Shown in pieces: positions 6,460-60,597 of a stretch of 64,000 nucleotides of DNA. The first letter of the stretch is position 1; the number at the start of each line of letters is the position of its first letter. The position numbers and the translations under genes were made by a program. The stretch is from assembly GCA_025464625.1 (NCBI GenBank), contig JAOAUZ010000001.1:101183-165182 (forward strand). The letters are read 5' to 3'. The DNA is from Rickettsiales bacterium. Its GTDB lineage: Bacteria; Pseudomonadota; Alphaproteobacteria; Rickettsiales; SXRF01. The notes under the pieces were generated by a model that did no database searches, had not been told where the DNA came from, and saw nothing but the letters and a program-made list of their open reading frames with translations.

Positions 6460-6577
6460 ATTAATTTTTGCTTCAAATCTCCTTGCAATGAACCTTCCTC
6501 AAAACAAGTCAGTTATGCAGTATAACCTCATGTTTTTCGGTTTTCATTGCGGCGCGCTTTTTTGCCAAAATTAATTT
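6460..6577. repeat. Long imperfect-palindromic element (family PE-C) abutting the plsC-family stop codon
   Basis: The ~100-bp core is about 94% identical by eye to 36451-36555. The outer arms aattaatttttg / caaaattaatt pair. Confidence 0.75.
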
Positions 6578-6597
6578 AATTAGGTATTATTGTTTTT

Positions 6598-6669
6598 TGT
6601 CATTCTGAGGCGTAGCCGAAGAATCTCCTTGTAGCATAGATGAGATACTTCGCTGCGCTCAGTATGACA
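6598..6669. repeat. PE-A palindromic element
   Basis: tgtcattctgaggcgtagccgaagaatct...gagatacttcgctgcgctcagtatgaca. Confidence 0.8.
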
Positions 6670-6674
6670 CCCTC

Positions 6675-6778
6675 TTGTCATTTCGAACGAATGTGAGGAA
6701 TCTTTTCAAGAATAATGTAAAGATGCCTCGACATCCTCCTTCGCCAAGGCTTCGGAGGACAGGAGCTCGGGACGACAA
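6675..6778. repeat. PE-A palindromic element carrying a nested extra hairpin
   Basis: ttgtcatttcgaacgaatgtgaggaatc...cctcgacatcctccttcgccaaggcttcggaggacaggagctcgggacgacaa. The same nested cctccttcgccaaggct(t/a)cggagg occurs at 30049-30166. Confidence 0.75.
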
Positions 6779-6807
6779 GTGCGCTCTGGTGACACACCAG
6801 AACAGTT

Positions 6808-57213: not shown

Positions 57214-57375
57214 AGCATTCTTCATTTAGCTCTACACGTTGTTAGCCTTCGACTCATGTACTACAAAATCCGCATACGGGATTTTGTGTTTTAAGAAAAC
57301 AAATCCCACTTGTGGATTTGTTATATACATGTCGTCTTGGCTGCCTAGTGTAGAACTAAAGCAAAAATGCTCTTA
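57214..57375. repeat. PE-C long palindromic element abutting the flgD stop codon
   Basis: The outer inverted repeat is agagcattcttcatttagctctacac / gtgtagaactaaagcaaaaatgctct. There are two inner hairpins (caaaatcc..ggattttg and aacaaatcc..ggatttgtt). Confidence 0.75.
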
Positions 57376-57445
57376 GAGGGTGTAAGTAGTGTTGGTGAGT
57401 AAAAAATATTAACAATAATAACATCGTCAAAGATGGAGAGAGTTT

Positions 57446-60400
57446 ATGAGTTTATATGGTGCGTTATATTCTGGTGTATCTGGTCTTAAAGGTCAGAGTA
57501 ACAAGATTGGTATCATTTCCGATAACATTTCAAACGTGAACACGGTTGGTTATAAAGGTAACCGTGGTGGGTTTGAAAGTTTGGTAACTTCATCCGCGAG
57601 CGCATCACAATTTTCACCAGGTGGTGTTATTGGTGCAAACCAGCAGCTTGTGAGCAAGCAGGGGTTGCTACAATCTACGGATTCAGCAACAGACATTGCT
57701 GTTTCTGGCGATGGATTCTTTGTTGTAAATCAGCAAAATGATAGCTTGGGTCAAGTATATTATACTCGTGCTGGATCTTTTACTCAGGATGCAACTGGTA
57801 ACTTCCGTAACGCCGCAGGATTTTTCTTGCAGGCTTGGCCACTTGATCGTGAAGGTCGTCTGCCTGGGGAAACTGGAAACTTGAATACCAATTCCAGTGC
57901 GAATTTAACCAGCCTTACAACGGTGAACGTAACCAATCTTACTGGTGTTGCCGCTTCTACGTCCAAAGTATCAATTGGAGCGAATTTAAACTCGGCACAA
58001 ACAGCATATCCCGGAGCTTCTGGAACAGCCAGCCCAGATCCGTTCCATACACAGAATAATGGAATTGCATCAAAAGATATTCTTGTACCAGGTGGAGTGA
58101 ACACTTTAACGCGTGGGGATCGTATCACGGTTTCTACTGGTCAGGGGCTTAGTTATACCTATCGTTATAGCGGGTTTACTTTTGGTCGTGATGTTACCAA
58201 TGCGTCATCGGTCGGTGATAACGGTCAGGCGGTTTTAACTTCGCCAAATACGCTAACGTCAGCTGCGGTGGCTATGGCAGCTAACCCTGTGGCTACAACT
58301 AATACCAGCACTACTGTAACCATCACTAGCGCGGCACATGGTCTTATAACAGGTGATACAGTAACTCTCGCAGGTCTTGCTGCAACTGGTGGTGTACCCG
58401 CTGGAGAATTAAATGCTACTCATGTTGTAACTGTTGTTGATGCTAATACTTATACTATAACCTCTACGACTGCTGCAACTTCAACAGTTGCTGCTGGCGG
58501 TGGTGCTGGCGGAACAAAAACCAATCTTCCATTCAAAACGACGAACGGCAGTGCGGTAGTAACTGTGAGGCAGGTTGGTCATGGTTTGGTGGATAATGAA
58601 GTTGTAACCTTGACTGGAAATACAGGTGCGGTTGGTGGCATACCAGCCAATGATCTTAACAGCACATTTGTGGTAAATGTGACTGATGATGACCATTACA
58701 CTATTACAGTTGCATCAAATGCTACCTCTACTACTGGTGGTGGCACTGGTACTGTTGTTGCTACCACACGATTGTTTGGTGGTGCTATTATGGACGCGAA
58801 TAATGCGACCACTAGGTTTTTGGCTGACACTGGCACTAGCTCTTTCAGTACTTCAGCACTTAGATTTACTGTTACGACTACAGCGACAGGTACGGTGTCG
58901 TTTACCTATACTTCAGCATCGCCAAATGCACAGCTTGGGCAATTTAATACACTAAACAACCTTGCGGATGCGATTAATGCAGTTACTGGTCTTTCTGCGC
59001 GTGTTTCTGGCGGAAGGATTTATGTTGGAGCGACTGATGCCAATGCAGCGATAACTTTTGCCAATGGTTCTAGTGTGGGAACTGCTGGTCCTCCAGTGCA
59101 ATGGGGTATTGACTGGATACGCGAGCTGGGACTTTCCAATCTTGGTACTGGTTCGGATCGCTTTGCTTCATTGGAAGGATTATCAAATCTGGTGAATAAT
59201 TCATCTGGTCTTACCGCAACAATTGAAAGTGCGTTGTCTTCGGCTAGTGTTAAAATCAACGTGAACAACCCGCTGGATACTATCACCTTCTCAGATTTAC
59301 CAGCTATAGCCAACGTTACACTAGGTACTACACCGTTTACAACAACTGCGGGTAGTGGAGTTGTAACTGTAACTTTACCATCTGCTCCGTCACCATCTTA
59401 TGTGACTGGTGATGTTGTGGATATGGGTACGCTTGCTGGCGGACCTTATGATGGAATAACAGCGGCAGATTTATCAGGGTTGTTTTCAATCACTGTTGTC
59501 AACGCCACAACTTTTACAATAGTTGCTAAAAACGGTGCGACAGCCACTGCTGGTGCAACAACTGGACCAACTGGTATATCAATGGTACAACCGCAAAACT
59601 ATGGTAGCCTTGTTGCCGAACTTGGTTTGGTTGATTCATTAAACGGTGCTGTTTATTCAGCGCAGACTACAGGTGCTTTGGGACCTGCTTATGACCCCGG
59701 TGATGCTACTAAAAACATTGCTGGCGGAACTATCACTGCACAATTTAGCCGACCAATACGCGTGTATGATTCACTTGGCACTGGTCATGATTTAAGCATG
59801 AGCTTTATCAAAACTGATATTAATACATGGGCGGTAGAAGTGTATGCTGCGAATGAGAGTGAAGTGACATCGCCACTGCCTAGCGGGCAAATTGTGACAG
59901 GTGCCATTACCTTTAACGGAGATGGTAGTTTGCAGAGTGTTGATAGTGCGCTTGCCAACCCAGTTGATATAACTTGGAACAATGGTGCGGTATCAAGTAA
60001 TATCACATTTGATTGGGGTACGGCAGGCTCTCCATTTGGAACGCTTAACGCTTCCTCAATTGGTAAAACAGATGGCCTAAGTCAATTCAACAGCGCGTAT
60101 CGTGTGAATTTTGTGAACCAAAACGGTGCGCCAGTTGGTGATTTAACAAGCGTGGCGATTACCGAGGAAGGGTTTGTTGTTGCTAGTTACAGCAATGGTC
60201 AGACGCAGAATCTATTTAAAATACCGCTGGCTGATTTTGCAAACCCGAATCAATTGCAGACTTCATCAGGAAACGTGTTTTTACAATCTTCAGAATCAGG
60301 GGAAGTAAACTTACGGCAATCTGGAAGCAGTGGCGTTGGTAAGATAGCTTCGTCATCGCTTGAGCAATCGAATGTGGAACTTGCAGATCAATTGACTGAT

Positions 60401-60493
60401 ATGATCGTTGCCCAACGAGCTTATCAGGCAAATACCAAGGTTATTTCAACAACAGATCAATTGCTCAGTCAGTTGAATGACATCTTAAGGTAA
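57446..60493 (+). CDS. flgE: Flagellar hook protein, giant form (1015 aa)
   Basis: The N-terminus is MSLYGALYSGVSGLKGQSNKIGIISDNISNVNTVGYK and the C-terminus is LEQSNVELADQLTDMIVAQRAYQANTKVISTTDQLL. A ~550-aa S/T/A/G-rich insert lies between the D1/D2 blocks. Confidence 0.95.
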   Translation: MSLYGALYSGVSGLKGQSNKIGIISDNISNVNTVGYKGNRGGFESLVTSSASASQFSPGGVIGANQQLVSKQGLLQSTDSATDIAVSGDGFFVVNQQNDSLGQVYYTRAGSFTQDATGNFRNAAGFFLQAWPLDREGRLPGETGNLNTNSSANLTSLTTVNVTNLTGVAASTSKVSIGANLNSAQTAYPGASGTASPDPFHTQNNGIASKDILVPGGVNTLTRGDRITVSTGQGLSYTYRYSGFTFGRDVTNASSVGDNGQAVLTSPNTLTSAAVAMAANPVATTNTSTTVTITSAAHGLITGDTVTLAGLAATGGVPAGELNATHVVTVVDANTYTITSTTAATSTVAAGGGAGGTKTNLPFKTTNGSAVVTVRQVGHGLVDNEVVTLTGNTGAVGGIPANDLNSTFVVNVTDDDHYTITVASNATSTTGGGTGTVVATTRLFGGAIMDANNATTRFLADTGTSSFSTSALRFTVTTTATGTVSFTYTSASPNAQLGQFNTLNNLADAINAVTGLSARVSGGRIYVGATDANAAITFANGSSVGTAGPPVQWGIDWIRELGLSNLGTGSDRFASLEGLSNLVNNSSGLTATIESALSSASVKINVNNPLDTITFSDLPAIANVTLGTTPFTTTAGSGVVTVTLPSAPSPSYVTGDVVDMGTLAGGPYDGITAADLSGLFSITVVNATTFTIVAKNGATATAGATTGPTGISMVQPQNYGSLVAELGLVDSLNGAVYSAQTTGALGPAYDPGDATKNIAGGTITAQFSRPIRVYDSLGTGHDLSMSFIKTDINTWAVEVYAANESEVTSPLPSGQIVTGAITFNGDGSLQSVDSALANPVDITWNNGAVSSNITFDWGTAGSPFGTLNASSIGKTDGLSQFNSAYRVNFVNQNGAPVGDLTSVAITEEGFVVASYSNGQTQNLFKIPLADFANPNQLQTSSGNVFLQSSESGEVNLRQSGSSGVGKIASSSLEQSNVELADQLTDMIVAQRAYQANTKVISTTDQLLSQLNDILR

Positions 60494-60494
60494 C

Positions 60495-60597
60495 TACTTA
60501 TTTGATTTAAGGTTTTCCCTACGTCAGGCTTCGGCTCATGTACTATAGTGTACACTTCGCCTAGCCTTTCTTGGGAAATTCCTTTCTCAAATAAGTA
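60495..60597. repeat. PE-C long palindromic element next to the flgE stop codon
   Basis: tacttatttgatttaaggttttccctacgtcaggcttcggctcatgtacta...cttgggaaattcctttctcaaataagta. Confidence 0.7.

Follow-up and report, generated by a model that had tools for sequence, protein, structure and literature searches.

Two families of palindromic repeats, probably mobile, that often begin on stop codons in Rickettsiales-like alphaproteobacteria

Why should long imperfect hairpins begin exactly where genes end? A stretch of 64,000 nucleotides from a Rickettsiales bacterium (GenBank assembly GCA_025464625.1, contig JAOAUZ010000001.1, positions 101,183 to 165,182 of the forward strand), referred to here as the window, contains five such hairpins, each starting at or next to the stop codon of the gene before it. 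A sequence-only reading of the window had taken them for a single repeat family, placed either by stop-codon-targeted insertion or by selection for a structure at the 3' end of the message. We find that the five hairpins are two families of small non-coding palindromic repeats, not one, and we term these A and B. The best reading of both is hairpin DNA of the kind represented by miniature inverted-repeat transposable elements (MITEs) and repetitive extragenic palindromes (REPs), lying in the intergenic space of uncultivated Rickettsiales-like alphaproteobacteria. We consider it probable that the two families are mobile, that their copies persist chiefly at stop codons, in the sense orientation, and that they are co-transcribed there as 3'-end or intercistronic stem-loops.

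Five hairpins behind plus-strand genes

The five elements were located within 1-3 nt of the positions first proposed for them, all on the plus strand and behind plus-strand genes. They start either on the stop codon itself or 1 nt beyond it, which bears out the description of elements in one orientation that begin 0-3 nt from a TAA or TAG. NCBIfam assigns the upstream open reading frames (ORFs) to a PlsC-family acyltransferase (5728-6459), a sensor histidine kinase (34912-36429), ApaG (45640-46032), FlgD (56527-57213) and an unusually long FlgE (57446-60493).

The first hairpin, of family A, lies 3' of the plsC-family gene (6457-6578, plus strand; shared core 6466-6576), and the TAA stop of that gene, at 6457-6459, forms its first paired bases. 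The second carries the family A core at 36449-36559 on longer arms, TAGACTTCTTCAATAGCTCTAC...GTGAGTTATTTAAGAAGTCTA (36427-36581, plus strand), and here the TAG at 36427-36429, the stop codon of the histidine kinase gene (which is convergent with bioA), is both the first triplet and the first paired bases of the hairpin. The cores beginning at 6466 and 36449 share 92% identity over 111 nt, or 94% if 104 nt are compared, in agreement with the earlier figure of about 94%. The other three hairpins are of family B. One lies directly 3' of the apaG stop at 46030-46032 (46033-46158, plus strand). Another lies in the flgD-flgE spacer (57211-57374, plus strand; covariance model score 82.3 bits), the flgD stop, TAG at 57211-57213, being the first triplet of TAGAGCATT...AATGCTCTTA. 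The last lies 3' of flgE (60493-60599, plus strand; 111 bits; hairpin proper 60495-60598) and begins 1 nt past the flgE stop, TAA at 60491-60493. It can be seen that the stop codon is part of the terminal inverted repeat in the plsC, kinase and flgD copies, as had been claimed for at least two of the five. We also found a sixth copy, an internally deleted family B remnant (47963-48016, plus strand; repeat finder, D19), which overlaps the end of fliB so that the fliB stop, TAA at 47969-47971, lies inside its left arm.

Each of the five hairpins is more stable than expected from its composition: against dinucleotide shuffles the fold z-scores are, in order along the window, -4.2, -8.7, -5.8, -7.4 and -6.7, and none of 200 shuffles was as stable as any of the five. 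These z-scores, together with covariance model E-values down to 1e-26, exclude chance AT-rich hairpins. Intrinsic terminators were likewise rejected, since a terminator scan calls none of the elements and no T-run lies behind any of them. The suggestion of a terminator role fails for the same reason, and the flgE copy is in addition followed, 20 nt downstream, by a separate canonical terminator: direct reading finds there, on the plus strand, a terminator-like hairpin, CCGCCGTCAGA...TCTGACGGCGG, with a T-run (60618-60677). We therefore give next to no weight to an explanation by chance hairpins or terminators, or by attC-like cassette recombination sites, which are compared with the elements below. 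Rfam gave no match at the gathering threshold over the whole window, and only chance-level matches when three of the A and B elements were searched by E-value. A full-text search of the literature for the B core sequence found unrelated primer matches only.

The hairpins belong to two families

Relatives were sampled as syntenic flagellar loci graded by FlgD amino-acid identity to the window: L001/L002 (98%, with ~90% nucleotide identity), L003/L004 (90%), L013-L016 (85%), L017 (81%) and L018 (68%). The plsC region was added from the closest relative (L055/L056, ~90% nucleotide identity) and from the 85% clade (L057). None of the contigs retrieved is identical to the window, and a look-up for exact proteins gave no record of the products of its apaG and phd genes. 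The source names of the FlgD homologues include "MAG: Rickettsiales bacterium" (MAG, metagenome-assembled genome), "Alphaproteobacteria bacterium" and "Pseudomonadota bacterium". A scan of 185,579 GTDB species genomes with the conserved-core pattern of family B gave four true matches in three MAGs, and none of the MAGs carrying the exact core among these species representatives is named Rickettsia; the same scan of metagenomes gave 35 contigs. The resulting family B set comprises 47 aligned copies from the window, four MAGs and about 30 metagenome contigs.

A first covariance model was made from nine aligned copies of the 46033, 57211 and 60493 type, which share a consensus hairpin of 28 pairs, 19 of them with compensatory changes. 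With this model the three window B copies score 68-111 bits on the plus strand and their reverse strands at most 30 bits, so the orientation of family B is well defined. The lowest of the three is the apaG copy, a divergent member with a longer apical hairpin (68.5 bits with the first model, 60.9 bits with the 47-copy model). When the 47-copy model was run over the whole window with filters off, again only the copies at 46033, 57211 and 60493 were recovered; the 6460 and 36428 copies reached 13-14 bits (E = 2-4) and the fliB remnant 12.8 bits. The A copies score only 9-16 bits with two models and filters off, the level of any hairpin, and a single family made up of A and B was rejected as unsupported. 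The expectation that the five loci would align better than AT-rich hairpins therefore holds for the B copies (61-111 bits) but fails for the A copies, which fit the B model no better than chance.

Members of both families are single imperfect hairpins of 105-165 nt. In family B the apex is near-invariant, with the core CTTCGGCTCATGTAC-(4-9 nt loop)-GTACACTTCGCC and pyrimidine-rich internal loops, and it stays so, with arms that covary, in genomes of 35-57% GC; part of this uniformity stems from the search patterns used to collect the copies. The B arms fall into subfamilies (TAGAGC...GCTCTA; TATACTCRTTTGATTTAAG...; TATAGTCTTCC...; and a Ga0123357 type) with ends that are mostly TA...TA, and the arm sequences of the repeats include TAGAGCRTTTTTCATTTAG, TATACTCRTTTGATTTAAG and TATAGTCTTCC. 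The termini TATACTC...GAGTATA, TAGAGC...GCTCTA and TATAGTC...GACTATA each recur at different loci.

The family A core is a different sequence, of 104 nt. Further family A copies lie 3' of fliD in L003 and, in L055, at the orthologous plsC site (10715-10836) and upstream of the thiolase gene, and the five sequences, from four loci, share a hairpin of 42 pairs, 12 of which are compensated. The arms of the 36427 A copy resemble TAGAGC-type B arms, a sequence likeness that suggests a distant or modular relationship between the two families. We also considered whether arms had been made locally from the flanks, by inverted target duplication or by insertion into an existing hairpin. This origin was rejected because the empty fliD-fliS site holds no hairpin and because the arms of the A copies are homologous and fast-evolving.

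Position and orientation relative to stop codons

Placement was assessed without gene calling, by asking for an ORF of at least 70 codons that ends between -5 and +31 of the element's 5' end. Among 49 unique B copies from other genomes and metagenomes, a same-strand ORF ends at the 5' end in 25, and an opposite-strand ORF lies at the 3' end in seven, some of these being spurious (25 versus 7, binomial P = 0.002). The commonest offset is 0, and in 8 of the 25 the element opens with the stop codon as its first triplet. If copies were spread uniformly over the spacer, 6.2 of the 27 that lie behind a same-strand ORF would be expected at 0-5 nt from the stop; 21 are found there (P = 5e-14). Between tandem genes, 20 copies are in sense and six antisense (P = 0.009), and a further eight copies lie in convergent and four in divergent contexts. 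We conclude that B-type elements have a strong bias towards stop codons and in orientation, as was suspected from the window; the refuting outcome named in the sequence-only reading, copies with no such bias, was thus looked for and did not occur in this type. The association is not universal, however: about half of all copies sit away from stops, including some in divergent promoter regions (B copies in L007, L008, L010 and L012 lie in 5' or divergent regions), and of the TATAGTCTTCC subfamily none of four copies is at a stop.

Two loci show how closely an element can be joined to reading frames. In L037 (9828-9932) two convergent ORFs, of 492 and 299 codons, both end in the terminal TAG/CTA of an element, which is the entire intergenic region between the two genes. 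In L001 the segment 1395-1434 (equivalent to window 47960-47971) has TTGGAGC against TTGGGAGC, and this 1-nt shift carries fliB past the TAA; the frame reads 31 nt into the element and ends at an internal TAG, so that the FliB tail has ~10 element-encoded residues.

Insertion that is itself stop-codon-specific and oriented would be one explanation of such a pattern. An enzyme would read TAA/TAG together with a DNA feature of gene ends, on the model of single-strand HUH/IS200-IS605-type or integrase-type systems acting on hairpin DNA, and position would reflect mechanism, not selection. The modal offset of 0, the share of copies with the stop as first triplet and the 21 copies within 5 nt all speak for this, as do the outgroups, which lack the element: their flgD and DUF2671 genes end in TAG even before TAGAGC-type copies turn up at those stops. 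The strict Watson-Crick pairing and the better fold of the bottom strand, described below, would suit a DNA-hairpin substrate. Against it, the flanks of the collected copies show no conserved motif upstream of B elements; copies of the TATAC type cannot supply a stop, and lie 1-5 nt after it or have an ORF that extends 10 nt inside them; half of the copies, and the whole of one subfamily, lie away from stops; and there is no candidate enzyme among the ORFs scanned. Such an enzyme would also have to tell a functional stop from the other TAA and TAG triplets of AT-rich spacers, and to our knowledge there is no way for a DNA enzyme to do so. We regard insertion of this kind as quite unlikely.

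NCBIfam and Pfam reveal no common functional theme among the genes upstream of the elements. Several copies cluster in the flagellar region, after fliB, flgD and flgE, and in L003 also after fliD and the DUF2671 gene.

Structure is conserved, and the complementary strand folds better

In the 47-copy B alignment 91.4% of pair cells are paired, compared with 27-47% when the partners are slid, and the covariation score is 0.588 against 0.156 for shuffles. Compensatory-mutation analysis, a check proposed in the sequence-only reading, found double changes in 24 of the 28 B pairs and in 12 of the 42 A pairs; compensatory changes are also seen between the flgE-site copy and its orthologues in L001 and L003.

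Nearly all B pairs are strict Watson-Crick pairs, and G-U pairs (16) are fewer than A-C mismatches (32); pyrimidine-pyrimidine mismatches number 69 versus 12 purine-purine. With RNA parameters the better fold is that of the complementary strand in 55 of 57 copies (-43.9 versus -34.8 kcal/mol), and with DNA parameters in 54 of 57 (by about 4 kcal/mol); the family A copies have the same polarity. As the copies are homologous, this polarity is one family trait and not 57 independent observations. In A and B copies alike, pyrimidines are enriched in the strand that has the sense of the upstream gene (T 33%, C 25%, A 23.5%, G 18%). We conclude that the shortage of G-U pairs and the better antisense fold give no specific support for selection on a sense-strand RNA helix, and the idea of a sense RNA structure as the feature specifically optimised is not supported. 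The conserved apical core would most likely be a protein recognition site, either for a mobilising enzyme or for an RNA-binding protein.

Gain, loss and replacement at orthologous sites

The flgD-flgE spacer occurs in several states among the relatives. It is 53-64 nt long and empty of the element in L017 and L018, and holds other repeat types in L013 and L015. L003 has a basic 107-nt B element there, the window a B element plus a ~57-nt insertion, and L001 a B element with its right half deleted. The insertion, nested in the apex at about 57265-57321, consists of two AAATCC-N7-GGATTT mini-hairpins around a TGTTTTAAGAAAACA hairpin; it is absent from the orthologous element of L003, and its motif has no second occurrence within the 64-kb window. 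The site 3' of flgE is similarly empty in L017 and L018 and occupied by other repeats in L013 and L015. In L017 the flgE stop runs straight into the terminator hairpin with no element between; in the window, L001 and L003 a B element lies between the flgE stop and the terminator.

Other sites show the same variety. An intact B copy (1401-1506, 93.6 bits) occupies the orthologous site of the fliB remnant in L001, and at the apaG site of L049 the left half of the B copy has been replaced by an element of another subfamily. The DUF2671 gene of L003 is followed by a B copy that opens with the TAG of that gene; in the window and L001 a REP pair of the CGTC type, not a B copy, lies at this place. 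The A copy 3' of fliD is found only in L003, and the A and B copies upstream of the thiolase gene only in L055/L056. This last pair lies side by side in L055 (3191-3501, both plus strand) between a pyridine nucleotide-disulfide oxidoreductase gene and the thiolase gene, in a divergent region whose window counterpart is 640-800; in the window a CGTC-type REP pair stands where the A copy would be, and where the B copy would be there is nothing. With orthologous sites filled, empty, half deleted or replaced, we conclude that elements appear, disappear and are overwritten over the time in which species diverge. It follows from the half-deleted or replaced copies of close relatives (flgD in L001, fliB in the window, apaG in L049) that individual copies are not needed.

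Where an element is kept, it changes slowly. The flgE-site element is 94% identical to its L001 orthologue and 87% to that of L003, and identity at four-fold sites in the same two comparisons is 69% and 53% for flgE and 85% and 65% for flgD. Judged by these alignments, orthologous elements appear to evolve more slowly than neutral sites, or else to be homogenised among copies. We note separately that divergence at four-fold sites is much faster in flgE than in flgD.

Slow evolution of this sort raises the alternative that the elements are cis-acting RNA stem-loops selected by the host. The apical core would bind an RNA-binding protein or nuclease, and the position at a stop would let terminating ribosomes gate folding, to control mRNA stability, termination efficiency or coupling. 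E. coli REPs within 15 nt of a stop codon are said to do this, in work by Liang, Rudd and Deutscher from 2015. A core that is near-invariant across genomes of very different GC content while the arms covary, orthologous copies slower than four-fold sites, the sense orientation with its precise seat on the stop codon and the clustering of several copies in the flagellar region would all be expected of such a device. It is harder to see why the same genes should lack the element in sister clades, why copies should be half deleted (flgD in L001, fliB in the window) or replaced (apaG in L049) with the gene retained, and why about half of the copies should be off stops, some of them in divergent promoter regions. 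Neither the absence of a sense-strand G-U excess with a more stable antisense fold nor the lack of a functional theme among upstream genes fits any better, and we think this alternative unlikely.

A proposed life history for the elements

We favour instead the reading in which the elements are mobile DNA. They would spread by transposition, mobilised in trans and probably inserting at TA, and copies would persist mainly where they land on or just past a stop codon. At such a place the ORF would stay intact, with the TAG or TAA at the start of the element able to supply its stop, and the downstream promoter and ribosome-binding site would be untouched. The element would then be transcribed as the first part of the 3' untranslated region (UTR) or of an intercistronic RNA and would fold into a long stem-loop, which would hold back 3' exonucleases or offer a site for processing of the RNase III type, but would not be an intrinsic terminator.

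Both families fit the description of MITEs, save for a target duplication and an autonomous partner. They are small and non-coding with terminal inverted repeats, the whole element being an imperfect palindrome, and their numerous copies, spread over unrelated loci, are polymorphic for presence or absence between related genomes. Most copies have TA at both ends, a dinucleotide that is also part of the palindrome, and the right-flank bases past the terminal TA show no duplication of TAG. A TA target duplication is consistent with the data; it is unproven, because the junction cannot be cleanly aligned between filled and empty sites.

Several points weigh against a mobile origin of this kind. 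No transposase was found among the 20 window ORFs scanned, where Pfam reports housekeeping genes only, and a fuzzy search with the arms found no long element with these termini in 542 kb of loci, its one further hit being a truncated remnant 2 nt after a stop (L036). No target-site duplication was resolved, the single filled (L055) and empty (window) pair having the junction just mentioned. The seat on the stop codon is stronger than simple survivorship in the available spacer predicts, and as the termini are symmetric, the biases in position and in orientation are both left without a mechanistic explanation. A host function would account for slow evolution and covariation no less well than selfish DNA does. 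As for the RNA part of the proposal, that role is one we infer only; the mismatch spectrum shows no G-U tolerance in the sense strand, and the complementary strand folds better.

A bolder proposal would tie insertion or retention mechanistically to the point where translation ends and to the direction in which transcription runs, with a dedicated protein that binds the invariant apical core. The element may have to start within the footprint of the terminating ribosome, and its pyrimidine-looped core may be bound by a hairpin-DNA transposase or by an RNA-binding factor. We offer this tentatively and doubt that it is right; if true, the elements would be either a mobile element that homes to stop codons or a widespread termination or mRNA-end device in Rickettsiales-like bacteria.

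Relation to known bacterial repeats

The closest precedent for mobile elements with this placement is found among the REPs. REP families are palindromic and are found chiefly between tandem and convergent genes, no more than 20 bp from the 3' end of the upstream ORF and at variable distance from the downstream gene; GTAG REPs often have termini that supply a TAG stop (Di Nocera et al. 2013, PMC3733652). The A and B elements share this placement, both near a stop and between tandem and convergent genes for the most part, some supplying the TAG, and like REPs they are abundant intergenic palindromes that are presumed to be co-transcribed. A REP unit is 20-40 bp long, with an unpaired GTAG or CGTC tag, a stem of 8-9 bp and a loop of 4-5 nt, and CGTC-tagged REPs, equivalent to RPE-4 and RPE-6, are typical of alphaproteobacteria including Rickettsia (PMC3733652). 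The A and B elements fall outside this unit definition because they lack a consistent terminal tag and each consist of one long hairpin, of 105-165 nt, whose apex is conserved. Stop-codon hugging is thus an already published, unexplained property of such repeats, and its occurrence here is a known kind of behaviour (PMC3733652). The comparison with REP, ERIC (enterobacterial repetitive intergenic consensus) and Correia-type repeats drawn in the sequence-only reading holds. None of the scanned ORFs of the 64-kb window encodes a REP-associated tyrosine (Y1) transposase (RAYT).

The Rickettsia palindromic elements (RPEs) are 100-150 bp long, come in several families per genome and are kept at orthologous sites (PMC3767692). 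Together with the palindromic elements of Wolbachia they resemble the A and B elements in size, in their Rickettsiales hosts, in orthologous retention and in the number of families. RPE-1, -2 and -3, however, typically lie in-frame inside ORFs, whereas A and B stop at the ORF boundary, and RPE-4, -6 and -7 carry an ATGAC motif that A and B lack. This missing motif, and the presence of the exact B core in only four MAGs among the GTDB species representatives, are indirect evidence on relatedness to the RPEs.

Correia/NEMIS elements (Neisseria miniature insertion sequences), ERIC/IRU (intergenic repeat units) of enterobacteria and Yersinia, and QMITE2 are also MITE-like, 100-190 bp long and able to form long hairpins when co-transcribed with their neighbours. 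According to De Gregorio, Di Nocera and colleagues, Correia elements reportedly have TA ends, and the effects of ERIC on mRNA are said to depend on orientation. These repeats show no sequence similarity to A and B and conserve their terminal inverted repeats; A and B, by contrast, conserve the apex while the arms drift with compensation. QMITE2 of Coxiella is found mainly in 3' UTRs (PMC5896051).

The attC sites of cassette recombination have much in common with the elements: imperfect palindromes right at the upstream stop, in one orientation, with structure conserved over arm sequence and a better fold of the bottom strand. In attC it is the R''/R' end boxes (RYYYAAC...GTTRRRY) that are conserved and the centre that varies, whereas the A and B ends read TA(G/T)A... 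and the centre is conserved. In addition, attC sites flank mobile cassettes near an integrase; A and B flank core genes in conserved synteny across relatives, and no integrase was seen in the loci examined. On the end sequences and the synteny, attC sites were rejected.

What distinguishes A and B from earlier examples is how cleanly they show stop-codon hugging, with a modal offset of 0 nt and a roughly 3:1 sense bias. An invariant apex with covarying arms, together with a series of filled, empty, half-deleted and replaced sites, makes them a system in which insertion specificity could be separated from selection, and DNA-level from RNA-level constraint. In practical terms, the elements inflate intergenic regions and supply stops and even short C-terminal extensions (fliB in L001), and gene callers and RNA-motif screens can be led astray by them when applied to MAGs of intracellular alphaproteobacteria.

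Other repeats and genes in the window

The window holds a further repeat family of short hairpins, TGTCATYYCGAG...CTCGGGATGACA, mostly arranged as inverted pairs, at 642-722, 4285-4464, 6599-6761, 12705-12777, 14312-14394, 16847-16924, 25341-25417, 30037-30152, 33211-33281 and 61257-61343. Unlike A and B, this family (TGTCATYYCGAG...GGRATGACA) fits the description of CGTC/TGTC REPs, and it contains the ATGAC motif that has been reported from Rickettsia RPE-4, -6 and -7; copies begin 1-6 nt after the stops at 12702, 16840 and 61255. A third repeat, GCCCTCAYCCTAACCYTCTCCCAGAGGGAGARGG, with a CTCTCCC...GGGAGAG hairpin, occurs in the window at 2790-2823 and 32539-32572 and also in the flgD-flgE spacers of L013 and L015, in the 85% clade. 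Its presence in these spacers indicates that unrelated hairpin repeats of several kinds share the same intergenic hot spots.

A 59-nt direct repeat, 90% identical between its copies (8360-8418 and 10158-10216), lies upstream of two adjacent minus-strand ORFs, 6808-8313, which has no NCBIfam or Pfam match, and 8457-10124. It may be the duplicated 5' region of tandem paralogues. Among the flagellar genes, the flagellin ORF (48180-51689) is, like flgE, unusually long, and the length of both is conserved in the relatives: flagellin has 1169 amino acids, against 1160-1477 in relatives, and FlgE has 1015 amino acids, against about 1016-1019 at most of the relatives' loci. A Phd/ParE toxin-antitoxin pair lies between apaG and fliB (46244-46802); ParE is present at the same position in L001 and L013, and L015 has a 54-codon ORF there instead.

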